Position numbers and translations under genes: made by a program | From: Mayamaea pseudoterrestris | Taxonomy: Eukaryota | NCBI GenBank assembly: GCA_027923505.1 | Contig: BROI01000007.1 | Location: 310,001 to 374,000, forward strand | Length of the DNA: 64,000 nucleotides | Direction: 5' to 3' | Notes under the pieces: model-generated | Database searches by the model: none | The model's input: the letters and a program-made list of their open reading frames with translations, nothing else | What the model was told of the DNA's origin: nothing | Part shown: piece after piece, positions 1-24,919 of the stretch | How the letters are laid out: each line of letters starts with the position of its first letter | Numbering within the stretch: position 1 is the first letter of the stretch

Positions 1-2240
1 CATCACCATGTATGCCACGGTGAGACTGAGCAGATCCAACAACTTGTTGGATCTGCTAGCGGTGCACCTCAAGTGGCAAGTGAGACTTCCAAAATGGCCT
101 GCAGACCCCAAAATACAGCCTGTAAGGACTGGAACATTGATTGGGACTCATAAAATTGTCCATCCATCACTATGCCCTGAGACTCCGCACATTCAACCAA
201 TGGTTGAATGTGCCAGCCCTGCACCCTTTTTGGCTGCAGGGATCATCAGCATTGCCCACTGAGCCCTCCAATTTCTTTCCAATCATGTTTGTTGTCAATG
301 ATGGGCCATAGGTTGGTCAGTTGCACCTCAGCATCCATCACCATGTACGCCACGGTGAGACTGAGCAGATGCAACAACTTGTTGGATCTGCTAGCGGTGC
401 ACCTCAAGTGGCAAGTGAGACTTCCAAAATGGCCTGCAGACCCCATAATCGGCCAACATGGACTGGAACATTGATTGGGGCTCATAGATTGTCCATTTGG
501 GTGTGGAAGCCATCAATATGCCCTGAGACTCCGCACATTCAACCATTGGTTGAATGTGCCAGCCCTGCTCCCTTTTTGGCTGCAGGGATCATCAGCATTG
601 CCCGCTGAGCCCTCCAATTTCTTTCCAATCATGTTTGTTGTCAATGATGGGCCATAGGTTGGTCAGTTGCACCTTAGCATCCATCACCATGTATGCCATG
701 GTGAGACTGAGCAGATGCAAAAACTTGTTGGATCTGCTAGTGGTGCACCTCAAGTGGCAAGTGAGACTTCCAAAATAGCCTGCAGACCCCATAATACCTC
801 ATAATACAACCAGTAAGGACTTGCACATTGATTGGGGCTCATGGACTTGTCCATTTGGGTGTGGAAGCCATCAATATGCCCTGAGACTCCGCACATTCAA
901 CCATTGGTTGAATGTGCCAGCCCTGCACCCTTTTTGGCTGCAGGGATCATCAGCATTGCCCGCTGAGCCCTCCAATTTCTTTCCAAACATGTTTTTTGTC
1001 AATGATGGGCCATAAGATGGTCAGTTGCACCTCATCATCCATCACCATGTATGCCACGGTGAGACTGAGCAGATCCGACAACTGGTTGGATCTGCTAGCA
1101 GTGCACCTCAAGAGGCAAGTGAGACTTCCAAAATGACCTACAGACCCCATAATACAACCTGTAAGGACTTGCACATTGATTGGGGCTCATAGACTTGTCC
1201 ATTTGGGTGTGGAAGCCATCAATATGCCCTGAGACTCCGCACATTCAACCAATGGTTGAATGTGCCAGCACTGCTCCCATTTTGGCTGCAGGAATCATCA
1301 GCATTGCCAGCTGAGCCCTCCAATTTCTTTCCAATCATGTTTGTTGTCAATGATGGGCCATAAGTTGGCCAGTTGCACCTCATCATCCATCACCATGTAT
1401 GCCACAGTGAGACTGAGCAGATGCAAGAACTTGTTGGATCTGCTAGCGGTGCACCTCAAGTGGCAAGTGAGACTTCCAAAATGGCCTGCAGACCCCATAA
1501 TACAGCCAACATGGACTGGAACATTGATTGGGGCTCATAGACTTGTCCATTTGGGTGTGGAAGCCATCACTATGCCCTGAGACTCCGCACATTCAACCAT
1601 TGGTTGAATGTGCCAGCCCTGCTCCCATTTTGGCTGCAGGGATCATCAGCATTGGCCGCTGAGCCCTCCAATTTCTTTCCAATCATGTTTTTTGTCAATG
1701 ATGGGCCATAAGATGGTCAGTTGCACCTCATCATCCATCACCATGTATGCCACGGTGAGACTGAGCAGATCCGACAACTTGCTGGATCTGCTAGCAGTGC
1801 ACCTCAAGTGGCAAGTGAGACTTCCAAAATGACCTACAGACCCCATAATACAACTTGTAAGGACTTGCACATTTATTGGGGCTCATAGACTTGTCCATTT
1901 GGGTGTGGAAGCCATCAATATGCCCTGAGACTCCGCACATTCAACCAATGGTTGAATGTGCCAGCCCTGCTCCCATTTTGGCTGCAGGAATCATCAGCAT
2001 TGCCCGCTGAGCCCTCCAATTTCTTTTTAATCATGTTTGTTGTCAATGATGGGCCATAAGTTGAGCAGTTGCACTTCATCATCCATCACCATGTATGCCA
2101 CGGTGAGACTGAGCAGATGCAAGAACTTGTTGGATCTGCTAGCGGTGCACCTCAAGTGGCAAGTGAGACTTCCAAAATGGCCTGCAGACCCCATAATCGG
2201 CCAACATGGACTGGAACATTGATTGGGGCTCATAGATTGT
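1..2240. repeat. Satellite family 1: tandem 348-bp unit, about 6.5 copies visible, runs off the left edge
   Basis: The motif catcaccatg recurs at 1, 336, 682, 1040, 1388, 1736 and 2084 (periods 335, 346, 358, 348, 348, 348). Each unit holds two long palindromes. Confidence 0.97.
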
Positions 2241-7127: not shown

Positions 7128-10100
7128 ACAACTTGTCACCAGTCTCAGCCTGTGTGACAACTTGTCAGCAGTCAAATGCCCTACAGCCATCAGCATGCCG
7201 CAGCCCTACAACAATAGCACAGCATGGTGCCAACATCATTATTCAGGCTGCGCTACATGATGGTATGCCTGGCTGGTGTCTCAGGGGTTGGCAATGTATT
7301 TGGTGACAACTTGTCACCAGTGTTAGCCCGCAAATGTCGTGACATTTAAACACCCCTACAGCAAGCCCTGTAGGTGCCCAAAATACACCAAAATGGTGCC
7401 AACATCATTTTTAAGGCTGCCCTATAAGATGGAATGCCAGGCTAGTGTCTCAGGGGCTGGCAATGTATTTGGTGACAACTTGTCACCAGTCTCAGCCTGT
7501 AGATGCCGTGACATTGAAACGCCCCTAGAACAGGCCCTGTGCCAACATCATTATTCCGGCTGCGCTACAAGATGGTAGGCTTGGTTGGTGTCTCAGGGGT
7601 TGGCAATGTATTTGGTGACAACTTGTCACCAGTCTCAGCCCGCAGATGCCGTGACATTCAAATGCCCCTACAGCAAGCCCTGTAGGTGCCCAAAATACAC
7701 CAGAATGGCGCCAACATCATTATTCAGGCTGCGCTAGAAGATTGTATGCCTGGCTGGTGTCTCAGGGGTTGGAAATGTATTTGGTGACAACTTGTCACCA
7801 GTCTCAGCCCGCAGATGCCATGACATTCTAACCCCCCTACAGCAAGCCCTGTAGGTGCCCAAATTACACCAGAATAATGCCAACATCATTATTCAGGCTG
7901 CGCTACATGGTGGTATGCCTGGCTGGTGTCTCAGGGGTTGGCAATGTATTTGATGACAACTTGTCACCAGTCTCAGCCCGCAGATGCCGTGACATTGAAA
8001 CCCCCCTACAACAGGCCCTGTAGGTGCCCAAATTACACCAGAATGGTGCCAACATCATTATTCAGGCTGCGCTACAAGATGGTAAGCTTGGCTGGTGTCT
8101 CAGGGGTTGGCAATGTATTTGGTGACAACTTGTCACCAGTCTCAGCCTGCAGATGTCATGACATTCAAACGCCCCTACAGCAAGCCCTGTAGGTGCCCAA
8201 AATACACCAGAAGGGTGCCAACATCATTATTCAGGCCACGCTACAAGATGGTACGCTTGGTTGGTGTCTCAAGGATTGACAATGTATTTGGTGACAACTT
8301 GTCACCAGTCTCAGCCCGCAGATGCCGTGACATTCAAACCCCCCTACAGCAGGCCCTGTGGGTGACCAAATTACACCAGAATGGTGCCTACATCATTATT
8401 CAGGCTGCGCTAGAAGATGGTATGCCTGGCTGGTGTCTCAGGGGTTGGAAATGTATTTGGTGACAACTTGTCACCAGTCTCAGCCCGCAGATGCCATGAC
8501 ATTCTAACCCCCCTACAGCAAGCCCTGTAGGTGCCCAAATTACACCAGAATAATGCCAACATCATTATTCAGGCTGCGCTACAAGATGGTAGGCTTTGCT
8601 GGTGTCTCAGGGGCTGACAATGTATTTGGTGACAACTTGTCACCAGTCTCAGCCTGTAGATGCCATGACATTGAAACACCCCTACAACAGGCCCTGTAGG
8701 TGCTCAAGTTACACCAGAATGGTGACAACGTCATTATTCCGGCTGCGCTACAAGATGGTAGGCTTGGTTGGTGTCTCAGGGGTTGGCAATGTATTTGGTG
8801 ACAACTTGTCACCAGTCTCAGCCTATAGATGCCGTGACATTGAAACGCCCCTAGAACAGGCCCTGTAGGTGCTCAATTTACACCAGAATGGTGACAACGT
8901 CATTATTCCGGCTGCGCTACAAGATGGTAGGCTTGGTTGGTGTCTCAGGGGTTGGCAATGTATTTGGTGACAACTTGTCACCAGTCTCAGCCCGCAGATG
9001 CCGTGACATTCAAACCCCCCTACAGCAGGCCCTGTGGGTGCCCAAATTACACCAGAATGGTGCCTACATCATTATTCAGGCCACGCTACAAGAGGGTACG
9101 CTTGGTTGGTGTCTCAGGAATTGATAATGTATTTGGTGACAACTTGTCACCAGTCTCAGCCCGCAGATGCTGTGACATTCAAACCCCCCTACAGCAGGCC
9201 CTGTGGGTGCCCAAATTACACCAGAATGGTGCCTACATCATTATTCCGGCTGCGCTACAAGATGGTAGGCTTGGTTGGTGTCTCAGGGGTTGGCAATGTA
9301 TTTGGTGACAACTTGTCACCAGTCTCAGCCCGCAGATGCCGTGACATTCTAACCCCCCTACAGCAAGCCCTGTAGGTGCCCAAAATACACCAGAATAATG
9401 CCAACATCATTATTCAGGCTGCGCTACATGATGGTATGCCTGGCTGGTGTCTCAGGGGTTGGCAATGTATTTGATGACAACTTGTCACCAGTCTCAGCCC
9501 GCAGATGCCGTGACATTGAAACCCCCCTACAGCAGGCCCTGTAGGTGCTCAAGTTACACCAGAATGGTGCCAACATCATTTTTCAGGCTGCGCTACAAGA
9601 TGGTAGGCTTGGTTGGTGTCTCAGGGGTTGGCAATGTATTTGGTGACAACTTGTCACCAGTCTCAGCCTGCAGATGTCATGACATTCAAACGCCCCTACA
9701 GCAAGCCCTGTAGGTGCCCAAAATACACCAGAATGGTGCCAACATCATTATTCAGGCCAAGCTACAAGAGGGTACGCTTGGTTGGTGTCTCAGGAATTGA
9801 TAATGTATTTGGTGACAACTTGTCACCAGTCTCAGCCCGCAGATGCCGTGACATTGAAACCCCCCTACAGCAGGCCCTGTAGGTGCTCAAGTTACACCAG
9901 AATGGTGCCAACATCATTATTCAGGCTGCGCTACAAGATGGTAGGCTTGGTTGGTGTCTCAGGGGTTGGCAATGTATTTGGTGACAACTTGTCACCAGTC
10001 TCAGCCTGCAGATGTCATGACATTCAAACGCCTCTACAGCAAGCCCTGTAGGTGCCCAAAATACACCAGAAGGGTGCCAACATCATTATTCAGGCCAAGC

Positions 10101-13045
10101 TACAAGAGGGTACGCTTGGTTGGTGTCTCAGGAATTGATAATGTATTTGGTGACAACTTGTCACCAGTCTCAGCCCGCAGATGCTGTGACATTCAAACCC
10201 CCCTACAGCAGGCCCTGTGGGTGCCCAAATTACACTAGAATGGTGCCTACATCATTATTCAGGCTGCGCTAGAAGATGGTATGCCTGGCTGGTGTCTCAG
10301 GGGTTGGAAATGTATTTGGTGACAACTTGTCACCAGTCTCAGCCCGCAGATGCCATGACATTCTAACCCCCCTACAGCAAGCCCTGTAGGTGCCCAAATT
10401 ACACCAGAATAATGCCAACATCATTATTCAGGCTGCGCTACAAGATGGTAGGCTTTGCTGGTGTCTCAGGGGCTGACAATGTATTTGGTGACAACTTGTC
10501 ACCAGTCTCAGCCTGTAGATGCTGTGACATTGAAACGCCCCTACAACAGGCCCTGTAGGTGCTCAAGTTACACCAGAATGGTGACAACGTCATTATTCCA
10601 GCTGCGCTACAAGATGGTAGGCTTGGTTGGTGTCTCAGGGGTTGGCAATGTATTTGGTGACAACTTGTCACCAGTCTCAGCCTGTAGATGCCGTGCCATT
10701 GAAACGCCCCTAGAACAGGCCCTGTAGGTGCTCAATTTACACCAGAATGGTGACAACGTCATTATTCTGGCTGCGCTACAAGATGGTAGGCTTGGTTGGT
10801 GTCTCAGGGGTTGGCAATGTATTTGGTGACAACTTGTCACCAGTCTCAGTCGCAGATGCCGTGACATTCAAATGCCCCTACAGCAAGCCCTGTGGGTGCC
10901 CAAATTACACCAGAATGGTGCCTACATCAATATTCAGGCTGCGCTACAAGATGGTATGCCTGGCTGGTGTCTCAGGGGTTGGAAATGTATTTGGTGACAA
11001 CTTGTCACCAGTCTCAGCACGCAGATGCCGTGGCATTCTAACCCACCTACAAAAGCCCTGTAGGTGCCCAAAATACACCAGAATAATGCCAACATCATTA
11101 TTCAGGCTGCGCTACATGATGGTATGCCTGGCTGGTGTCTCAGGGGTTGGCAATGTATTTGGTGACAACTTGTCACCAGTCTCAGCCCGCAGATGCCGTG
11201 ACATTGAAACCCCCCTACAACAGGCCCTGTAGGTGCTCAAGTTACACCAGAATGGTGCCAACATCATTATTCAGGCCACGCTACAAGATGGTAGGCTTGG
11301 TTGGTGTCTCAGGGGTTGGCAATGTATTTGGTGACAACTTGTCACCAGTCTCAGCCTGCAGATGTCATGACATTCAAACGCCTCTACAGCAAGCCCTGTA
11401 GGTGCCCAAAATACACCAGAAGGGTGCCAACATCATTATTCAGGCCACGCTACAAGATGGTACACTTGGTTGGTGTCTCAGGGATTGACAATGTATTTGG
11501 TGACAACTTGTCACCAGTCTCAGCCCGCAGATGGAGTGACCTTCAAACCCCCCTACAGCAGGCCCTGTAGGTGCCCATATTAAACCAGAATGGTGTCAAC
11601 ATCATTATTCAGGCTGCGCTACAAGATGGTAGGCTTTGCTGGTGTCTCAGGGGTTGGCAATGTATTTGGTGACAACTTGTCACCAGTCTCAGCCCGCAGA
11701 TGTCATGACATTCAAACGCCCCTACAGCAAGCCCTGTAGGTGCCCAAAATACACCAGAATGGTGCCAGCTTCATTATTTAGGCTGCGCTACAAGATGGTA
11801 GGCTTGGCTGGTGTCTCGGGGGATGACAATGTATTTGGTGACAACTTGTCATCAGTTTCAGCCCGCAGATGTCGTGACATTCAAACGCCCCTACAGCAAG
11901 CCCTGTAGGTGCCCAAAATACACCAGAATGGTGCCAACATCATTATTCCGGCTGCGCTAGAAGATGGTAGGCTTGGCTGGTGTCTCAGGGGATGACAATG
12001 TATTTGGTGACAATTTGTCACCAGTCTCGGCCCACAGATGTTGTGACATTCAAACGCCCCTTCAGCAAGCCCTGTAGGTGCCCAAATTACACCAGAATGG
12101 TACCAACATCATTGTTTAGGCTGCGCTACAAGATGGTATGCCTGGCTGGTGTCTCAGGGGTTGGAAATGTATTTGGTGACAACTTGTCACCAGTCTCAGC
12201 CCGCAGATGTTGTGACATTCAAACGCCCCTACAGCAAGCCCTGTAGGTGCCCCAAATACACCAGAAGGGTGCCAACATCATTATTCAGGCCACGCTACAA
12301 GATGGTATGCTTGGTTGGTGTCTCAGGGATTGACAATGTATTTGGTGACAACTTGTCACCAGTCTCAGCCCGCAGATGCCATGACATTCAAACGCCCCTA
12401 CAGCAGGCCCTGTAGGTGCCCAAATTACACCAGAATGGTGCCAACATCATTATTCAGGCTGCGCTACAAGATGGTATGCCTGGCTGGTGTCTCAGGGGAT
12501 GGCAATGTATTTGGTGACAACTTGTCACCAGTCTCAGCCCGCAGATGTCGTGACATTCAAACGCCCCTACAGCAAGCCTTGTAGGTGCCCAAATTACACC
12601 AGAATGGTGCCAACATTATTATTCAGGCTGCGCTACAAGATGGTATGCCTGGCTGGTGTCTCAGGGGATGGCAATGTATTTGGTGACAACTTGTCACCAG
12701 TCTCAGCCCGCAGATGCCATGACATTCAAACGCCATTACAGCAGGCCCAGTAGGTGCCCAAAATACACCAGAATGGTGCCAATATCATTAATCAGGCTGC
12801 ACTACAAGATGGTATGCTTGGCTGGTGTCTCAGGGGATGGCAATGCATTTGGCGACAACTTGTCACCAGTCTCAGCCCGCAGATGCCGTGACATTCAAAC
12901 GCCCCTACAGCAAGCCCTGTAGGTGCCCAAAATACACCAGAATGGTGCCAACATCATTATTCAGGCTGCGCTACAAGATGGTAGGCTTGGCTGGTGTCTC
13001 AGGGGATGGCAATGTATTTGGTGACAACTTGTCACCAGTCTCAGC
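7128..13045 (+). repeat. Satellite family 2 (169-bp unit), subfamily A, about 35 copies
   Basis: tggtgacaacttgtcacca recurs every 169 bp (e.g. acttgtcacc at 7621 and 7790). Consensus includes aatgtatttggtgac and ccctgtaggtgcccaaa. Confidence 0.98.
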
Positions 13046-13448
13046 TGACAAGTCGCAGAGCGGCGAAGTCAAGAGCCCGAACCCTAATTAGCTTGTGTCG
13101 AGTCCGCAGCTGTCGTATGTGACATGTGAATGAAGAAAGTGCGCAACCGTCGTGTGGATGCGTTGTATGAATGGAACGACCAGTTACGACTGATGTAATG
13201 TGATTGAAAGAAACGGATTGATCGGATGATCTTCCGAGTGGTCGATGTAGCGATGTAGCGATAAGCTCACAATATAGAACTACTAGTTTGCGACGAGAGT
13301 GCAGTCGTATTCGTGTAGTGGCGAGCGCAAGACTATTCGACGAGCCATCTCCATCAAGAGCTGTACAGACCGTGGCCAAGGACCCTGTATCGGAGCTTTT
13401 TGGAGGTAAGACGTTGACTGCGAAATCGTCAACGGTGTTAGATTAACA
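13046..13448 (+). repeat. 5' LTR, copy 1
   Basis: Starts with TG directly after the satellite (tctcagc|tgacaag). Matches 15513-15915 and is homologous to ~21575-21917. The 3' end is uncertain: ...gtca at 13431 or ...ttaaca at 13448. Confidence 0.85.
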
Positions 13449-13537
13449 TTTCAGTGCTTTGAGAGCGAGAACGAGCGAGGGAGCTATCGTGACACATTCG
13501 TCTGCAGCGAGTCCGATTCCTCTGATCAACCTCCACC

Positions 13538-15512
13538 ATGACGACGATTGATGTAACGACCTACAAGCGTGCCGTCGGTAAAGTCTTCGATATTCCGTGG
13601 CTCGCAGCGTCCGCAGCTTGGGACCCAAACGACCCTACCGCAGTATGCTTCGAATCCGAGGAACTCACGACTGCGGAGGCGATGGCCGAGTTGTCGGAAC
13701 AAGACGTGACGAACATTAAGACCCAGTACCAGTGGTCGACGATACGAACAAGCCGATTGCGCAAGCTCATGAGTTGGATTCACGAGCAACGTCGGACGAC
13801 TGCGCAATGGCAAGACTTGGAGAAAGACCAGATTACGAGCCGAGACCTCCCAGTAGCACCGGGGTCACCGACCGCAGGCAACCGCAGTTTCGGAGACTTC
13901 AGCGTTATCGGAGGCAACGACACCACGACGAAGCGACACGACATCAAGCTGGATCTGAAGACCATGCTGGAGCTCAAGAACGATCGCAAGTTCTGCTCCT
14001 ACTGGCGGGCCTTCAAGAACCGCATGCGAAGCGAGCGACTTGGCTACTTTTGGGACGACGAGTTCAAGGCACCAGCTGCACTCGAGCCAGAATTCGCCGA
14101 GTATCAGTATCAGTGTTCGAAGCTTTTAGCGGCGCTCGAGTATACCTGCAAGACTCCGCAGAGCAAGCTCATTGTCCGCAAGCACATCGACAGCGCGAAT
14201 GCCTCAGCGTGCATTGCAGAGTTGGAGGCGACATTCCTCGATGGGATGGCGCGCAAGTTGGATCTACGTTCGGCCGAAGACGAATGGCGCAATTTCACCC
14301 TCGACGCGGGTTACGCCAAGTCTCTCGTCAATTGGCTCATCCAGTGGTCCAGCAAGGAAGAGAACTACAATGACTACGCCGAGGAAACCGAGCTACTTAC
14401 AGCAAGCACGAAGCGTCAGATTTTGGAACGCGCGGTTTTCCGCCATGCGGATATGGCAGCGGCGGTGAACATGGCGCTGATCGAAGAGTCCAAGACCGGC
14501 AACCCGATGGCGTACACCCAGTTTTGGAACCTCCTGAACGACGTCGCACGTCAATCTGACAATCGTCGTGGCATCAAGGAGACCGAGAAGCGTCAGGCGA
14601 ACCAATCTGAGCAGACCAAGAAAGAGAAGGAGAAGACGAAGAAGGCAAGTGCGAACAATTCCCAGTCTACGCCAAGTAGCAGCAACAATCAGCAGTCCAA
14701 TCAGGGGGGCGGTGGTCGCGGCGACTTGAGCACGGGACGAGGCGGCGGCGGCGGCCGCGGTCGGGGAGATACTCGTTCGTATGTTCGCAGCTATGCCGAC
14801 ACGAAGACGATCGAAATTCCCAGCGACGTGAATGCGACGATTCCACCAAACACGTGGCGACTCCTTACCCGCGATCAGCAACATGAAGTGTTTGAACGCC
14901 GTGGTACGAGTCGAGCGGCCAGTGCTGCAGGTGGTTCGGCATCAGCAACACAGGCAGGCACCACGCAGACGACGAGTACAACACGCAACGCTAACGTCGC
15001 AGCCACTTCATCAGCGGCAACGACGGCGAGTGCGGCGACCGAACGTGTGAACAACACTAGCCGTGGCTCAGCGATGCGAAGTTTCTTAGGTCCAGACCAG
15101 CCCACGACTACGACTCGGGGAGCGAATATCGCTCAGAGTCGCAAGTACAAAGTCGCGAGCATTGACTTGGATAAGCATTCAGCATCGACTGTCGATCGCG
15201 GCGCGAGTGGCGGAGTATGGGGAGCGGACGGCCGCATCCTTACCGAGGACAAGTTCCACAAGATTGAAGTCACTGGAGTCGGTGGTCTCAAACTTCCGGA
15301 CCTGTCTACCGTCACAGCAGTCGCCAAGCTTAAGAGCACCAAGGGTTGGGTCGTCGGCGAGTTCCATAATTACGCATATTCTGGAACCGGCAAGACGATT
15401 CATTCGAGTATGCAGATGGAAGCCTTCGGACTTCATGTCAACGACAAGCATTACAACTTTGGTGGCAAGTTACGAATCGAAACGCCAGATGGATACAAGT
15501 TTATGCTCGGGA
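13538..15512 (+). CDS. Gag-protease of copy 1, cut off by the second LTR
   Basis: Translation is identical to 16005 onward up to ...YKFMLG, then reads into LTR sequence (stop at 15589). Confidence 0.85.
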
Positions 15513-15915
15513 TGACAAGTCGCAGAGCGGCGAAGTCAAGAGCCCGAACCCTAATTAGCTTGTGTCGAGTCCGCAGCTGTCGTATGTGACATGTGAATGA
15601 AGAAAGTGCGCAACCGTCGTGTGGATGCGTTGTATGAATGGAACGACCAGTTACGACTGATGTAATGTGATTGAAAGAAACGGATTGATCGGATGATCTT
15701 CCGAGTGGTCGATGTAGCGATGTAGCGATAAGCTCACAATATAGAACTACTAGTTTGCGACGAGAGTGCAGTCGTATTCGTGTAGTGGCGAGCGCAAGAC
15801 TATTCGACGAGCCATCTCCATCAAGAGCTGTACAGACCGTGGCCAAGGACCCTGTATCGGAGCTTTTTGGAGGTAAGACGTTGACTGCGAAATCGTCAAC
15901 GGTGTTAGATTAACA
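15513..15915 (+). repeat. 5' LTR, copy 2
   Basis: Copy of 13046-13448 at offset 2467, no difference seen. Confidence 0.88.
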
Positions 15916-16004
15916 TTTCAGTGCTTTGAGAGCGAGAACGAGCGAGGGAGCTATCGTGACACATTCGTCTGCAGCGAGTCCGATTCCTCTGATCAACCTC
16001 CACC

Positions 16005-18692
16005 ATGACGACGATTGATGTAACGACCTACAAGCGTGCCGTCGGTAAAGTCTTCGATATTCCGTGGCTCGCAGCGTCCGCAGCTTGGGACCCAAACGAC
16101 CCTACCGCAGTATGCTTCGAATCCGAGGAACTCACGACTGCGGAGGCGATGGCCGAGTTGTCGGAACAAGACGTGACGAACATTAAGACCCAGTACCAGT
16201 GGTCGACGATACGAACAAGCCGATTGCGCAAGCTCATGAGTTGGATTCACGAGCAACGTCGGACGACTGCGCAATGGCAAGACTTGGAGAAAGACCAGAT
16301 TACGAGCCGAGACCTCCCAGTAGCACCGGGGTCACCGACCGCAGGCAACCGCAGTTTCGGAGACTTCAGCGTTATCGGAGGCAACGACACCACGACGAAG
16401 CGACACGACATCAAGCTGGATCTGAAGACCATGCTGGAGCTCAAGAACGATCGCAAGTTCTGCTCCTACTGGCGGGCCTTCAAGAACCGCATGCGAAGCG
16501 AGCGACTTGGCTACTTTTGGGACGACGAGTTCAAGGCACCAGCTGCACTCGAGCCAGAATTCGCCGAGTATCAGTATCAGTGTTCGAAGCTTTTAGCGGC
16601 GCTCGAGTATACCTGCAAGACTCCGCAGAGCAAGCTCATTGTCCGCAAGCACATCGACAGCGCGAATGCCTCAGCGTGCATTGCAGAGTTGGAGGCGACA
16701 TTCCTCGATGGGATGGCGCGCAAGTTGGATCTACGTTCGGCCGAAGACGAATGGCGCAATTTCACCCTCGACGCGGGTTACGCCAAGTCTCTCGTCAATT
16801 GGCTCATCCAGTGGTCCAGCAAGGAAGAGAACTACAATGACTACGCCGAGGAAACCGAGCTACTTACAGCAAGCACGAAGCGTCAGATTTTGGAACGCGC
16901 GGTTTTCCGCCATGCGGATATGGCAGCGGCGGTGAACATGGCGCTGATCGAAGAGTCCAAGACCGGCAACCCGATGGCGTACACCCAGTTTTGGAACCTC
17001 CTGAACGACGTCGCACGTCAATCTGACAATCGTCGTGGCATCAAGGAGACCGAGAAGCGTCAGGCGAACCAATCTGAGCAGACCAAGAAAGAGAAGGAGA
17101 AGACGAAGAAGGCAAGTGCGAACAATTCCCAGTCTACGCCAAGTAGCAGCAACAATCAGCAGTCCAATCAGGGGGGCGGTGGTCGCGGCGACTTGAGCAC
17201 GGGACGAGGCGGCGGCGGCGGCCGCGGTCGGGGAGATACTCGTTCGTATGTTCGCAGCTATGCCGACACGAAGACGATCGAAATTCCCAGCGACGTGAAT
17301 GCGACGATTCCACCAAACACGTGGCGACTCCTTACCCGCGATCAGCAACATGAAGTGTTTGAACGCCGTGGTACGAGTCGAGCGGCCAGTGCTGCAGGTG
17401 GTTCGGCATCAGCAACACAGGCAGGCACCACGCAGACGACGAGTACAACACGCAACGCTAACGTCGCAGCCACTTCATCAGCGGCAACGACGGCGAGTGC
17501 GGCGACCGAACGTGTGAACAACACTAGCCGTGGCTCAGCGATGCGAAGTTTCTTAGGTCCAGACCAGCCCACGACTACGACTCGGGGAGCGAATATCGCT
17601 CAGAGTCGCAAGTACAAAGTCGCGAGCATTGACTTGGATAAGCATTCAGCATCGACTGTCGATCGCGGCGCGAGTGGCGGAGTATGGGGAGCGGACGGCC
17701 GCATCCTTACCGAGGACAAGTTCCACAAGATTGAAGTCACTGGAGTCGGTGGTCTCAAACTTCCGGACCTGTCTACCGTCACAGCAGTCGCCAAGCTTAA
17801 GAGCACCAAGGGTTGGGTCGTCGGCGAGTTCCATAATTACGCATATTCTGGAACCGGCAAGACGATTCATTCGAGTATGCAGATGGAAGCCTTCGGACTT
17901 CATGTCAACGACAAGCATTACAACTTTGGTGGCAAGTTACGAATCGAAACGCCAGATGGATACAAGTTTATGCTCGGGATGGAAAGTGGCATGGCGACCT
18001 TGCCAATGTTTCCAGTGTCGGCGCATGAGCTTCACACCTTACCTCGGGTCATGATGACCTTCGATGGACCTTGGGATCCGAATGAGTTTGACGTCGAGCC
18101 GACCGAGGACGACGACTATGACTCTTCGGATGACGATGACGACGAGGACGACGTACCGGACTTGTTGTCGCGCGACGAAGACGACGAAGACAGTGACGAC
18201 GAAGAGGGCTTCACGCGCGTGACACGTTCGCGTACGCGGAATCGCACCCATCGTCAGAGCAACGTGACGTATACGAATCTCGGACACGACAATCAACCTG
18301 TTTACACCGAGAAGGAGCTGAATGTTTGTGCCGTCGTACAGAAGTACAATGCGGATCTCGTCTATCAGCCCTACAAGTCTATCCTGCCAAAGAAACCTGA
18401 TATCGACGCATTGCTGCCAAACTTTGCATGGTACCCGGCGCAGACGATCAAGGATACTTTGCGCCACAGCACGCAGTTCAACATGCACGAGCGCCGATAC
18501 CCCCCACGAATGCATCGAAAGAGCCGATTCCTGAACGTCTACCGTCTAGATGATCGAGTGGCCCATGACACCATGTTCTTCGACGAACCAGCCATGGATG
18601 ATCACATCGACGAATGCAGGGTAGCGCGTGCAGCTATTCTATGGTTGTCGCAGTCAGATCATTGCCGTGTATCCCATGCGGACGAAAGGTGA
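16005..18692 (+). CDS. Copia Gag-PR and start of integrase (open part of the polyprotein)
   Basis: 895-aa ORF with Gag carrying an RGG tract, aspartic protease STVDRGASGG, GKTIHSSMQMEAFG, an acidic linker and integrase DRVAHDTMF. It shifts frame near 18620. Confidence 0.9.
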   Translation: MTTIDVTTYKRAVGKVFDIPWLAASAAWDPNDPTAVCFESEELTTAEAMAELSEQDVTNIKTQYQWSTIRTSRLRKLMSWIHEQRRTTAQWQDLEKDQITSRDLPVAPGSPTAGNRSFGDFSVIGGNDTTTKRHDIKLDLKTMLELKNDRKFCSYWRAFKNRMRSERLGYFWDDEFKAPAALEPEFAEYQYQCSKLLAALEYTCKTPQSKLIVRKHIDSANASACIAELEATFLDGMARKLDLRSAEDEWRNFTLDAGYAKSLVNWLIQWSSKEENYNDYAEETELLTASTKRQILERAVFRHADMAAAVNMALIEESKTGNPMAYTQFWNLLNDVARQSDNRRGIKETEKRQANQSEQTKKEKEKTKKASANNSQSTPSSSNNQQSNQGGGGRGDLSTGRGGGGGRGRGDTRSYVRSYADTKTIEIPSDVNATIPPNTWRLLTRDQQHEVFERRGTSRAASAAGGSASATQAGTTQTTSTTRNANVAATSSAATTASAATERVNNTSRGSAMRSFLGPDQPTTTTRGANIAQSRKYKVASIDLDKHSASTVDRGASGGVWGADGRILTEDKFHKIEVTGVGGLKLPDLSTVTAVAKLKSTKGWVVGEFHNYAYSGTGKTIHSSMQMEAFGLHVNDKHYNFGGKLRIETPDGYKFMLGMESGMATLPMFPVSAHELHTLPRVMMTFDGPWDPNEFDVEPTEDDDYDSSDDDDDEDDVPDLLSRDEDDEDSDDEEGFTRVTRSRTRNRTHRQSNVTYTNLGHDNQPVYTEKELNVCAVVQKYNADLVYQPYKSILPKKPDIDALLPNFAWYPAQTIKDTLRHSTQFNMHERRYPPRMHRKSRFLNVYRLDDRVAHDTMFFDEPAMDDHIDECRVARAAILWLSQSDHCRVSHADER

Positions 18693-21520
18693 CGTCACGA
18701 AACGATTCCGTGATTTCATCCGCGAAGTTTGGAGTCCGTTGGAAGTCTTCTCGGATAATGCGAAAGAAGCGATGAGTGCCGAGTTTGACGAAGTTATGCG
18801 CGAGTTCATGATTGCCGTTCACCACATCGGAGCCGTACTATCAGAATCAAAACCCAGCCGAGCGCACCATCGGGCACGTAAAGGAAAGTCATGAACGACT
18901 TATGGACCGAACGGGCACTCCGGCATGCTTCTGGCTACTGGCGCTTTACTCTTTCAGACCGAGATGTACCGTCATTTGTCGCATCCTGCCTTGGACGGCA
19001 AGTCTCCCATCGAGTTTATCACTGGGCAAGTCCCCGACGTGTCGAAGGTATTTGCATTTTCGTTGGTTTGAAATTGTCAACTACTTTTGCCGGATGTCGG
19101 AGGCTTCCGAAACGCCGCGAGCGCCCTGTTGGTCCCAACACCGAGAACGGTGCGACGTTCATCTGCGTTGCGAGACACTGGTTGGCTTCGGGCGCCCAAA
19201 GACAAAATTTTGGACCCGGCGACCGGCCCCCAGTCATGACAGAAGGGACGGCGCTCTCTCTATACCACCTGGTAGGTGGCCAAGATCTTGCGCCGTGAAA
19301 TGATCAAGAAGATTACCGACGCCGACAGCAGAGATGATGATTCTTTCATTCCTGACGAAGACGATACCCCTTTGGTCGAGACGGTGGAATACCAGCGCGG
19401 GAGAAGATTGACTCGCGAGCAAGATCCGGGCACCACGAGAAGAACCAACTCGTGCAGGCTGCACTATCGAGTTCGGCAAAAACGGACGACGGGCAAGAAG
19501 TTCGAACGACCGTCATGAGCAAGCTGAACAACCGCGACGCCCAGAACCATCAGAACATTAAAATGATGCTGAAGCTTGGTAACGGCGAAGCGGACGAAGT
19601 CATGTCGTATGTCGAGGTTTCCGATCTCTACGAGGCGAAGTGAACCAAGACATGGCGAATCCTGACGGTAAATGGTTCTTCAAGGAGATTCTAGACCATC
19701 AGGGGTCCGCTGACGAGCAAGTCGAAGAACTGGAAGCATTCCAAGTGGAACGTCCTTGTACAATGGGACGATGGATCCAAGACTTGGGAGCCTTCAACGC
19801 GATGATCGAAAGCGACAAAGTATCAGTGGCAGCCTACGCTGCAAAAAGCATAATCTTCTGACAAGGACGGATGGACATCGTTGAATCGATGGGCCCGGAA
19901 TGCCAAGAAGGTTGCGCGCAAGGTGGCGACGCCGAATGGAGCAGCAGAAGAACGGACCGCGCACAAGTTTGGAGTCCAAGTACCCTTGAGATTGGAAGGA
20001 AGCGCGGCGTTTGCAGGAAGCTGCAGGCACACGAAGTGGACGGAGCGAAGGTGTGGAGCTTGGGCGAACCTGGACGAGTACGAGACGTTTCACGATCTCG
20101 GTCCGAGTTCCACCACAACACCACCAACTGGTTACCAAAAGATCCGAGTCCATTTTGTGTATGATGTCAAGCACGATTTCGAGACAGGCACGTCTCGCTG
20201 CAGGGCCACATGACGAAAGACAATCGACGATGCCTACCCAGTGTTATCTCATTGAAGGCAATGGTCTAGTTTCTCGTCATTGGAGAAGCGAACGGCAAGG
20301 AAGTGCATGGTCGGTGACATTGGGAATGCTTATCTCCAAGCCGTTCACCAAGGAGAAGGTATCGCCGTTGGAGGCCCCGAGTTCGGGGAGCGCGAAGGAC
20401 ACATACTGGCCGTCAAGGCTTTGCACGGATTGCGAACGAACGGAGCACGATTCCACGAACGCAGCCGACGCCCTTCTGCGGAAGGGTGGAAGCCTGCCCC
20501 ATTGCGATTCCGATCTGTGGATCAAGCGACCGGCGACAGCACTGGAACTGTTATATTTAGACGATCCAGCAGCGCGTTCTCTTCTTCAAGATGCTAGAGG
20601 AGAAGTACAAGTTTAAGCTCAAAGGTATGATCCCGATATCATTCGGCGGTGACTTTGGACGACGACGGACCTCTTTACTGGTCGGCCAAGACCTACGCGA
20701 AACCTTGGCGCAGTACGAACGCTTGTTTGAGGTCCCCGAAGAAGTACTCATCACCAATCGACAAAGACGATCATCCAGAACTTGACCAAAGAGCTACCGG
20801 AACGACAAAGAAGATTTACCAGTTCGGAGCACTTCAGTGGGCAAATTACTTGGGTCGATTTGACATTGCCGAGCAGTTGTGAGTCTGTCGCGACCGTGTG
20901 GAGCCGCGGGAACGTGAAGCGCAGTCTGTGGATATTTAGAGAGGACGAGCATCCGCTTCCGCACGGCGGGTTAGCCAACGAGGAGCGGCACCATGGAGGA
21001 ACAAGATTGAGCGCAGCAGCGTTACGGGAAGGACGAGTTGATGAGATGTTGACGCCTACCCACCGCCAAAGGGTGTGACTGTACTAACATCAACTCGAGG
21101 ATGCTTTCATGCACACTGTGACAGGTGCAAGTCATTGGCTAGTTTTGTATTTGTCAACCAGACGCCTGTCGACTGGCATTGCAACTCCAGGCTACAGTCG
21201 AGACAGGATCGGAATTCGGCGTGAGCAAAGAGTGGAACGGATATCAGCATTTCTCTAATGCAAGGCCGCTCATGGCTATGGGCTACTATTAGAAGTCTGC
21301 CTATGTACGGAGACAACTACAGTGATTACACAATCTACAACTCGAAGTTCGATTACTGTCCAAGCCATACAATGCGCTTCGGGCCTACCATGGCGGCAGT
21401 TGCTGCGGGAATTATCAAGTTTGTGAAGATTGACGAAAGCGAGAACATTGGCGACGCATTTCGCTTCGGGTACCTGCCAGACCAGATGCGAGCGGCGTAC
21501 CGCGCCTTGTTATGGCGGCG
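18628..21520 (+). pseudogene. Copia pol (IN core, chromodomain-like module, RT, RNase H) broken by many indels
   Basis: Fragments in alternating frames: FSDNAKE, TSEPYYQNQNPAERTIG, YLHFRWFE, WFFKEILDHQG, HKFGVQVP, GYQKIRVHFVYDVKHD, GDIGNAYLQA, KALHGLRTNGARFH, GALQW..LGRFDI, VNQTPVDW, MYGDN, ENIGD. The indels may be sequencing errors. Confidence 0.85.
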
Positions 21521-21574: not shown

Positions 21575-21920
21575 GACAGAGCGGCGGTCAAGAGCCAAAC
21601 CCCACATTAGCTTGGGTTTGAACCCAGCGTCGATGTGACATGTGAACGAAGAAAGTGCGCAACCGCCGGGGGCGGTGTATGAATGGAACGACATTGCAAC
21701 TGAGTAAGATGGAAAGAAACGGATTGATCGATGATCTTCCTGCGGGATGTAGCGACGAAGCGAAAGTGGCAATAAGAACACAAGTTTGCGACAAGGCAGC
21801 GAGAGGGCGAAGCAAGAAACTATTCGACGAGCCATTCCATCAAGAGCTGTACAGACCGCGGCCAAGGACCCTGCATCGGAGCTTTTGGAGGTAAGACGTG
21901 ACGCGAAACTGTCAACGAGC
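21575..21920 (+). repeat. 3' LTR (indel-rich copy)
   Basis: Matches the 5' LTR block by block (cagagcggcg, gtgacatgtgaa, gaagaaagtgcgcaaccg, tattcgacgagcca, caagagctgtacagaccg, ggaggtaagacg, gtcaacg). Preceded by a short purine run (cagggag). Confidence 0.85.
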
Positions 21921-21932
21921 TACTGTGAGACT

Positions 21933-22130
21933 GAATGTGCACGGCATTTGTGTTGAGACTGGTGACAAGTCGCCACCATTGCCACCCTGAGACACCAGCC
22001 AAGACCACCCAGCACTTGTAGCTCAGCCTAAATAATGATGTTGACCATTTGGTGTATTTTGGGCACCTACAGGGCTTGCTAGGGGCGTTGGAATGTCACG
22101 GATCTGCAGGCCGAAACAGACAAGATGTCA
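21933..22130 (-). repeat. About one monomer of the 169-bp satellite in inverted orientation
   Basis: tgagactggtgacaagt ... ctgagacaccagcc ... gggcacctacagggcttgct is the reverse complement of the family-2 unit. Confidence 0.9.
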
Positions 22131-22139
22131 TCGACCTAA

Positions 22140-24919
22140 CAAAACCCCCATGCCCCGGCCACCCAAAAACCCAATGAGTCAGGCAAAACATTCCAGGGTG
22201 TGCCATGGACAGGAGCCAAAGGTGCAAAAGGGAATGCCTAGGCCTACAGCATGGAATGGTCTGCAAGATGTGGGTGGGCCAACACCACAAATTATGGAAC
22301 CAGCCACTACAATGCCCCATGCCCCGGCCACACCAACAACCCAATGAGTCAGGCAAAAACATGTCCAGGGTGTGCCACAGACATGAGGGATGGGCTGACG
22401 TGGTGCAAAACGGACTGCCTGGAGGCCTACACCATCTGCAAAATGGGTGTGGGCCAACACCCCAAATTATGGAATCATAACACAATGCCCCATCCCCCGA
22501 TCACCCAACAACCCAACGAGTCATGCAAAACGTGTCCAGGGTGTGCCATTGACATGAGGATGGTCCGATGATACAAAACGGACTGCCTGGAGGCCTACAG
22601 CATGGAATGGTCCACAAGATGGGTGTGGCCAACACCCCAAATTATGGAATCATACCACTACAATGTCCCATGCCCTGGCCACCCAACAACCCAATGAGTC
22701 AGGCAAAAACATGTCCAGGGTGTGCCATTGACATGAGGATGGGCTGACATGGTGCAAAACGGACTGCCTGAGGCCTACACCATCGCAAAATGGGTGTGGC
22801 CAAAAAAACACCCCAAATTATGGAATCCTACCACACAATGCCCCTCGCCCCTGATCACCCAACAAACCCAATGAGTCATGCAAAACATGTCCAGGGTGTG
22901 CCATTGACAAGAGCATGGTCTGACACTGAACAAAACGGACTGCCTGGAGGCCTACAGATGGAATGGCCCACAAGATGGGTGCGGCCAACACCCCAAATTA
23001 TGGAATCATACCACACAATGGGACCCCATGCCCTGGCCACCCAACAACCCAACAGTCAGACAAAAACATGTCCAGGGTGTGCCATTGAGCAGAATGGGCT
23101 GAAATGGTGCAAAAGGACCGCCTGGAGGCCTACACCACTGAAAAGGGTGGCCAACACCCCAAATTATTGGAACACCACTACAATGCCCCGTCCCCGGATC
23201 ACCCAACAACCCAATGAGTCATGCAAAACAAGTCCAGGGTGTGCCATGACATGAGGATGGTCTGACATGATACAAACGAACTGCCTGGAGGCCTACAGAC
23301 AGGAATGGCTACAAGATGGGTGTGTGGCCAACACCCCAAATTATGGAATCATACTCACACAATGCCCCATGCCCTGGCCACCCAACAACCAAGTCAGGCA
23401 AAACAAGCCAGGGTGTGCCATGACAGGAGGATGGCTGAAATGGTGCAAAACAGACTGCCTGAGGCCTACACCATCTGCAAATGGGTGGGCCAACACCCCA
23501 AATTACGGAATCATACCACTACAATGCCCCGTGCCCTGATCACCCAACAACCCAATGAGTCATGCAAAAACATGTCCAGGGTGTGCCATGACACGAGGGA
23601 GATGGTCTGACATAGTACAAAAGGGACTGCCTGGAGGCCACAGCATGGAATGGTCTACAAGATGGGTGTGGCCAACACCCCCAAATTATGGAATCATACC
23701 ACTACAATGCCCCCATGCCTCTGGCCACCCAACAACCCAATGACTCAGGACAAAACATGTCCAGGGTGTGCCATGACATGAGGATAGGGATGCAAAACGG
23801 AAACGACGGGAGGCCACGCCAAAATGGGTGGCCAACACCCCAAATTATGGAATCATACCACTACAAATGCCCTCTCCCGATCACCCAACACCAATGAGTC
23901 ATGCAAAACATGTCCAGGGTGCCATTGGACATGAGCAGGAAGGGCTGACATGGTACAAAACGGACTGCCTGGAGGCCTACAGCATGGAATGGTCTACAAG
24001 AGGTGCGGGCCAACACCCCAAATTATGGAATCATACCACTACAATGCCCCATGCCCTGGCCACCCAACAACCCCAAGAGTCAGGCAAACACATGCCAGGG
24101 GTGTGCCAGAGGATGGGCCAAATGGGCAAAACGGACTGCCTGGAGGCTCACCATCTGCATGGGTGTGCAACACCCAAATTATGGAATCCTACCACACAAT
24201 GCCCCCATCCCCCGCTCACCCAACAACCCAATGAGTCGTGCAAAACATGTCCAGGGTGTGCCATCGACATGAGGATGGTCTGACAGTACAAAACGGACTG
24301 CTACAGCATGGAATGGTCTACAAGATGGGTGTGGCCACCGCAAATTATGGAATCATACCACTACAATGGCCCATGCCCTGGCCACCCAACAACCCAATGC
24401 ATCAGCAAACATGTCCAGGGTGTGCCATTGACATGAGGATGGGCTGATGGTGCAAAACGGACTGGGATTGGAGGCCTAAACCATCTGCAAAATGGGTGTG
24501 GCCAACACCCCAAATTATAATCATACCACACAATGCCCCGTCCCTGGCCACAACAACCCAATAAGTCAGGCAAAACATGTCCAGCGTGTGCCATTGCAAG
24601 GAGGATGGGCTAATGGTGCCAAACGGACGCCTGAGACCAACAAAATGGGTGTGGCTAACACCCCAAATTATGGAATCATACTACATAATACCCGCTCCTG
24701 ATCACCCAACAACTCCAATGAGTCAGGCAAAAACATGTCCAGGGTGTGCCATTGACATAAGGGGATGGGCTAAATGGTGCAAACGGACTGCCCGCTCATC
24801 TGCAAATGGGTGTGGCACCCCAAATTATGGAATTATACCACCAATGCCCTGTCCCTGCACCCAAACCCAATGAGTCAGCAACACATGTCCAGGGTGTGCC
24901 ATGACATGAGGATGGGCTG
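22140..24919. repeat. Satellite family 3, ~175-bp monomers alternating as an A/B dimer, about 16 monomers
   Basis: ccaatgagtca(g/t)gcaaaa...catgtccagggtgtgcca...gtggccaacaccccaaattatggaatc recurs at about 22171, 22341, 22513, 22691, 22868 and onward. Confidence 0.95.

Follow-up and report, generated by a model that had tools for sequence, protein, structure and literature searches.

Domain order, fold and conservation leave little doubt that the 64,000-nucleotide stretch of Mayamaea pseudoterrestris contig BROI01000007.1 analysed here (the window) carries a young Ty1/Copia LTR retrotransposon of the CoDi-A (CoDi-I) type, and that the segment at 19673–19874 (+) is the integrase C-terminal chromo-fold domain of this lineage. 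Copies of the lineage lie preferentially in long-methylated repeat DNA, chiefly in a 169-bp satellite (SAT169), at preferred positions of its monomer, and this association, observed in standing copies, very probably reflects a choice made at insertion. The bias looks real, and the chromodomain is its putative cause. The chromodomain itself is not new; what is new here is its structural support, its distinct cage pattern and a count of the satellite bias.

Element architecture and integrity of the window copy

A SAT169 array (7539–13045, +; CpG o/e 0.29) forms the 5′ flank of the element and adjoins the 395-bp 5′ LTR with its TG...TA ends (13046–13440, +) at 13045/13046, a junction at monomer phase 23. 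The LTR and part of the gag-protease region (13046–15524, +; 99.9% to 15513–17991) are doubled in an exact 2.47-kb tandem duplication spanning 13046–17991, whose breakpoint is a short sequence common to the protease region and the LTR start; doubled LTRs and tandem elements also occur at loci L055, L057/L058 and L062/L063. The full element body begins with the second LTR copy (15513–15907, +) and continues with gag, protease and the integrase start (16005–18692, +) in a frame that is open and lies in well-polished sequence. Pieces of the D, D, E motif mark the frame-broken integrase catalytic core (approximately 18550–19000, +; rve E 0.045, a weak match). They are followed by the segment immediately before the chromo module (approximately 19480–19640, +), the module itself (19673–19874, +; predicted to form three strands plus helices) and a frame-broken reverse transcriptase (RVT_2) with RNase H (approximately 20130–21500, +). 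The 3′ LTR (21577–21917, +) lies in unpolished sequence and is 80% identical to the 5′ LTR, the alignment having 25 gap openings.

An intact copy elsewhere in the genome measures 6706 bp, has 395-bp LTRs ending in TG...TA and encodes, within a single 1958-aa ORF, first gag and protease, then integrase and the chromo segment, and finally RT and RNase H. The protease motif lies at aa 550, the integrase D residues at 852 and 916, the chromo segment at 1262 and the RT from ~1416; this RT matches PF07727 (RVT_2) above the cut-off, with an E-value of 3.5e-21. LTRs throughout the family end in TA rather than CA (window 13431–13445), and those of two sister families end in AA and CA, respectively. Exact 5-bp target-site duplications were found in 9 of 21 end pairings of the family and are absent from the window copy. 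Among the sequencing runs listed by a run search, there was no RNA run containing the element.

The initial annotation had assembled the segment from peptide pieces spread over three frames at 19673–19874 (+), allowing for about four single-base indels. Comparison with the intact copy gives five, at 19702, 19793, 19840, 19843 and 19859. A DNA search of the organism's own genome (30.6 Mb, 41 contigs) produced 40 matches among 48 candidates, and in all 19 other copies fetched for the frame check the segment lies in one open frame, so that the corrected peptide stands except for one residue. Short-read contigs from four of four public runs disagree with the window at at least four of the five indel sites, among the contigs listed. 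Relative to the intact copy, the window has zero indels in the bins before 18500 and 10–52 indel events in each 500 bp beyond that point. Because of this jump in density near 18500, the frame breaks are most likely assembly errors, with less certainty for the locus itself, since short-read contigs collapse copies. True decay of the window copy is disfavoured: the indels begin abruptly near 18500–18600 and run on into the satellite beyond.

The 3′ flank of the window copy is the same satellite, inverted (21932–24919, −) and without a target-site duplication, and the copy is therefore not one clean insertion. It joins a phase-23 5′ junction in the plus orientation to a 3′ junction near phase 57–58 in the minus orientation, within unpolished sequence, and is probably a chimeric join. 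The ~3 kb of inverted satellite returns to the original orientation near 24915, where no element lies; it sits within unpolished sequence reaching ~37150 and is possibly a read artefact. Taken alone, the window copy is weak evidence for targeting, and the result rests on family counts that leave it out.

Lineage assignment

The integrase lies between the protease and the RT, which is the Copia order, and pattern searches of the 1958-aa ORF of the 6706-bp copy found no CCHC array, GPY/F, env or added gene. A Ty3/Gypsy chromovirus is thus ruled out, as the integrase precedes the RT and GPY/F is absent. In the RT tree, the chromodomain carriers group together in one clade, to the exclusion of the other Copia elements of the genome. 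No relative named CoDi was among the RT relatives returned, so the CoDi-A assignment rests on markers, which Llorens et al. 2009 tabulate in the available part of supplement 3 (PMC2774666) and which include an integrase C-terminal chromodomain. Protease pattern 3, read by eye, has no exact LPIV; this motif is variable in the clade, being present in five of the seven CoDi-A members listed in that part of the supplement.

The initial annotation regarded such a domain as atypical of Copia and convergently acquired, and mentioned similar segments in other diatom Copia polyproteins. This is correct, but was already published for CoDi-A/CoDi-I in 2009 and 2017. The accessible text of Llorens et al. 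2009 (PMC2774666) describes a putative CoDi-A integrase C-terminal chromodomain, flags it as deserving attention and proposes a capture independent of the chromoviruses; that of Ustyantsev et al. 2017 (PMC5348765) restates both the CoDi chromodomain and its independent capture.

Chromo fold and aromatic cage

An AlphaFold (AF2) model of the segment has a mean pLDDT of 83, with predicted strands at residues 14–21, 37–42 and 47–51 followed by helices; strands 1 and 2 are separated by a conserved 18-residue loop. In a VIA structure search of 48,161 chains, every one of the 23 chains matched at Z ≥ 5 contains a chromo or chromoshadow domain, and the best match reaches Z 6.9 with an rmsd of 2.5 over 54 aligned residues. 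Chromoshadow matches (Z 6.9, 6.7, 6.1) and chromo matches (Z 6.7, 6.1, 6.0) are tied within 1 Z. The top Foldseek ranks are likewise chromo/chromoshadow entries, but at E ≥ 0.067, with no hit for the segment model at E ≤ 0.001. These scores for a predicted structure are middling (all Z < 8), and it is the unanimity of the matches that carries the case for the fold. The proteins cpSRP43, GEN1 and eEF3/New1 are also among the structural matches; these are chromo folds without a histone-reading role.

At the sequence level, Pfam Chromo (PF00385) matched neither the window fragments nor the intact segment, and matched 2 of 23 homologous segments weakly (best E 0.00099). PDB sequence searches with the segment and its profile gave chance hits only (a lectin and NKG2D), with cpSRP43 at E 0.77; the corresponding segment of a relative did reach chromodomain proteins, cpSRP43 at E 1.1e-4. 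The chromo fold claimed in the initial annotation is hence borne out by structure (AlphaFold, VIA, Foldseek) and weakly by sequence (Pfam). Of the checks it proposed for the fold, the Pfam search misses this segment, while the AlphaFold model ranks chromo and chromoshadow domains first.

The module is conserved. Of 120 RT-nearest relatives examined, 110 have 200 or more residues upstream, and all 110 carry the module; 2459 cluster representatives match it at E ≤ 0.001. Some relatives (P0026, P0043, P0078, P0118) have two to four chromo-module matches per protein. Among 152 domains taken from the best 150 of the 2459 library hits, cage position 1 is aromatic in 131/149, cage position 2 is W in 149/152, and the spacer between W and T is 5 residues long in 127/130 matches, as compared with 8 in Rhino. 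In an alignment of a relative with the Rhino chromodomain, positions 1 and 2 are retained, and three residues are missing where position 3 would lie. Of the three aromatics of a methyl-lysine cage, two are therefore present and the third is deleted, and the full three-residue cage of an HP1-type or group I reader is lacking, which makes an HP1-like methyl-lysine read-out doubtful. The domain also differs from group II, defined by the absence of the first and third aromatics, in that position 1 is usually aromatic. The cage pattern is thus neither group I nor group II as these are defined in the available text of PMC3605345.

Insertions are enriched in SAT169

We fetched 40 stretches covering the other copies of the focal family, and scored a junction as lying in a satellite if, of the 60 flank bases next to it, 30 or more matched one. 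In this family, 11/33 3′ junctions (three tandem joins to the family itself being scored as misses) and 10/34 5′ junctions lie in SAT169. Two sister families, in which the chromo module was checked in one copy each, contributed 22 and 16 copies, drawn from the 150 best of 308 RT candidates; inner tandem copies were passed over, whereas truncated ones were included. Of their 3′ ends, 5/22 and 4/16 lie in SAT169. The controls were the 30 best-scoring RT loci, none of which has a chromo module in the 1.5 kb preceding the RT; they form a separate clade of eight families, and three were dropped (one without a callable end, one without a flank and one interrupted by the focal family). None of the remaining 27 lies in SAT169, and four lie in other satellites.

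Pooled over the three chromodomain families, 20/71 3′ ends fall in SAT169, against 0/27 for the chromodomain-less controls (Fisher p 0.0013) and 3/60 background points (p 0.0004). The background consisted of the scored midpoints of sixty evenly spaced 3-kb samples (180 kb), with some contig extents estimated; SAT169 makes up 3.5% of the sampled bases and all library satellites 10.7%. When any satellite is counted, the contrast is weaker (27/71 vs 4/27, p 0.03), and in satellites other than SAT169 there was no excess over the controls (7/71 vs 4/27, p 0.49). About six in ten chromodomain copies (44/71) lie outside any satellite. Collapsing the repeated 3′ junction left p at 0.0012. The control families look as young as the focal one (within-family identity 97.4–99.9% vs 98.8%), so that older controls as the cause of the contrast are unsupported.

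Four of the nine insertions with an exact 5-bp duplication lie in SAT169, each with a different duplication. No exact duplication was found in the other 12 of the 21 end pairings, and one pairing among the 21 is spurious; with exact duplications in only 9 of 21, recombination or mis-joins are common. According to the accessible part of PMC2806351, recombined CoDi elements of P. tricornutum likewise lack exact duplications. Some junctions may copy a single event, as phase 24 in the minus orientation was found in three contigs. The initial annotation had proposed a satellite-targeting device and suggested looking for enrichment of family insertions in satellites: the excess is present for SAT169, and the targeting idea holds as a family-level bias, with the chromodomain as its presumed agent. 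A search by titles and abstract openings, with subscription papers (including Gao et al. 2008) outside its scope, found no published count of satellite bias or of CoDi insertion preference, and the portion of 10.1101/2025.10.24.684338 available contains nothing on satellites or chromodomains.

The repeat landscape has several other features. Besides SAT169, there are at least five more satellite families (units of 348, ~181, 144 and 182 bp and a second 169-bp unit; L130, L148, L161, L162, L174, L175, L179 and window 1–2240), and all satellites together, at ~11% of sampled bases, are abundant for a 30-Mb genome. One copy of a chromodomain family sits directly behind the RT of a chromodomain-less Copia and is nested in it (L085/L120, G000:C13 near 242600). 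Several chromodomain-less Copia families (L092, L094–L096, L099, L102–L104) have very long open frames of 2445–2809 aa, well above the usual length of a Copia polyprotein.

Insertion phase and flank composition

Phases were counted from the 17-bp palindrome of the SAT169 monomer, using 18 exact 3′ junctions, with two of the 20 left out (one offset, one truncated). Ten of the 18 fall in phases 23–36, i.e., 14 bp of 169 (simulated p 4e-5), as do 7 of 15 distinct phases (p 0.005); in the sister families alone the cluster has p 0.09. The cluster is exploratory, having been found and tested on the same junctions. Phases 23, 36, 57 and 163 each occur in both orientations, and phase 23 occurs in two families, which points to separate insertion events, and there are at least 20 distinct combinations of family, phase and orientation. 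Of two junctions that were not part of the phase set, L044 falls at phase 25 and L040 lies outside the satellite. No base preference was found at 56 non-satellite junctions, and the used phases score no higher under that profile (p 0.26); a target-sequence motif behind the hot spots was rejected accordingly. The palindrome is near-perfect over 17–19 bp (e.g., window 13021–13037), one arm has 6–7 bases in common with the LTR start, and insertions crowd 14–28 bp to either side of its centre.

Outside satellites, the flanks of chromodomain copies have a median CpG o/e of 0.77 (n = 41), compared with 1.0 for controls (n = 23; p 0.03) and 1.14 for the background (n = 53). Flanks this poor in CpG, with SAT169 itself at 0.29, agree with a preference for DNA that has long been methylated. 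As stated in the accessible text of PMC9998398, both H3K9 and H3K27 methylation are found on the methylated TE regions of P. tricornutum.

A proposed tethering model and its alternatives

We lean slightly towards a chain of events in which the domain tethers integration to satellite heterochromatin and positioned chromatin sets the phase. The chromo domain would stay on the integrase after polyprotein cleavage and would tether the integration complex to satellite heterochromatin, probably by way of a changed pocket or a protein–protein contact and not through a complete HP1-type cage. On the nucleosome-length repeat, a positioned nucleosome or protein would leave a short stretch beside the palindrome open to cutting, and the element would thereby avoid genes in a compact genome. 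Integrase chromodomains are considered likely to steer integration to heterochromatin in the accessible text of PMC5348765, and that of PMC3545840 describes Ty1 hot spots at fixed nucleosome positions.

The evidence amounts to one lineage contrast, in which any integrase difference could be the cause, because all chromodomain families group in a single RT clade, to which none of the eight control families belongs. The bias might then be real but stem from another part of the CoDi-A integrase, e.g., the segment before the chromo module, or from host partners, with the chromo fold serving DNA or RNA binding or intasome assembly. Domain and lineage are inseparable here, as every one of the 110 relatives carries the domain and the controls belong to a distant clade; the cage is incomplete, and the cpSRP43, GEN1 and eEF3/New1 folds without histone reading are among the structural matches. 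Moreover, the available part of 10.64898/2026.09.17.752431 describes the targeting of CENH3 chromatin by Tal1 through its integrase C-terminus. Cage positions 1 and 2 are, however, strongly conserved, and three groups of retrotransposons independently gained a chromodomain at the same site, which suggests a common targeting role, as argued in the accessible text of PMC5348765. We consider this explanation unlikely.

Standing copies in one imperfect assembly also mix insertion choice with selection. Insertion could have been near random, with the excess arising later through purged genic insertions, satellite blocks copied together with their elements, recombination between elements or long-read mis-joins. 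End pairings without an exact duplication, the joined phase-23 and phase-57/58 ends of the unpolished window copy and the recurrence of some junction types across contigs agree with such a history. Yet purging should also have struck chromodomain-less Copia of the same age, none of which lies in SAT169, and the variety of junction types, the four SAT169 insertions with four different duplications and the p-value retained after collapsing the repeated junction all speak against it, leaving it distinctly unlikely. Least probable, and in our opinion very unlikely, is passive attraction, in which bent or cruciform DNA at the palindrome is simply an easy integrase substrate, with no tether. The junctions do lie near the palindrome, mostly 15–28 bp to one side and some 14–27 bp to the other, a pattern noted post hoc, but none of the 27 chromodomain-less Copia lies in SAT169 and the bias reaches CpG-poor flanks outside satellites.

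It is conceivable, though on the whole doubtful, that CoDi-A chromodomains make up a third class of integrase chromodomain, with cage positions 1 and 2 kept, position 3 lost and an extra conserved loop, which tethers Copia integration to the chromatin of one satellite and to a fixed monomer phase. This would be the first functional evidence that a chromodomain directs targeting in Ty1/Copia, and the insertion phases would show where a nucleosome or protein is positioned on a diatom satellite that may be centromeric or heterochromatic. The literature searched contained no earlier test of the fold or insertion bias of the CoDi-A chromodomain. The presence of young Copia elements with and without a chromodomain beside abundant satellites in one genome makes an old targeting question testable. 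Should the domain steer insertion, Copia and Gypsy would have independently reached the same way of hiding in silent chromatin with a different binding pocket, and insertion phases offer a way to study the satellite chromatin of a group with poorly mapped heterochromatin.

Comparison with known systems

The element resembles CoDi-A, as described in the accessible texts of PMC2774666, PMC2806351 and PMC5348765, in its Copia order, its putative integrase C-terminal chromodomain and the lack of a CCHC array, GPY/F and env; some CoDi families described there also lack TG/CA ends, as here. Those portions of the three papers contain no insertion-site test for CoDi-A, whereas the present host genome is satellite-rich and its copies display a measurable satellite and phase bias. 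With the Ty3/Gypsy chromoviruses (group I with a YWY cage, and group II, in the available text of PMC3605345), it shares an integrase C-terminal chromo fold and presumed heterochromatin targeting, but it belongs to another superfamily with another domain order and without GPY/F. Relative to the chromovirus domains described there, the present domain has lost the third aromatic, unlike group I, kept the first, unlike group II, and has the 18-residue loop.

In yeast Ty1, too, the integrase is of Copia type and its hot spots occupy fixed chromatin positions. According to the accessible part of PMC3545840, the targets of Ty1 are nucleosomes upstream of Pol III genes, and its two hot spots lie ~70 bp apart. 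In SAT169, by contrast, there is one main cluster in the satellite monomer. Another parallel is Tal1, a plant Copia. As far as the available text of 10.64898/2026.09.17.752431 describes it, Tal1 is likewise an LTR element whose integrase C-terminus guides it to satellite arrays; its preference was seen for new insertions, while ours is seen in standing copies. Tal1 is directed to CENH3 chromatin, whereas SAT169 is dispersed over many contigs and only possibly centromeric, and the candidate device here is a chromo fold.
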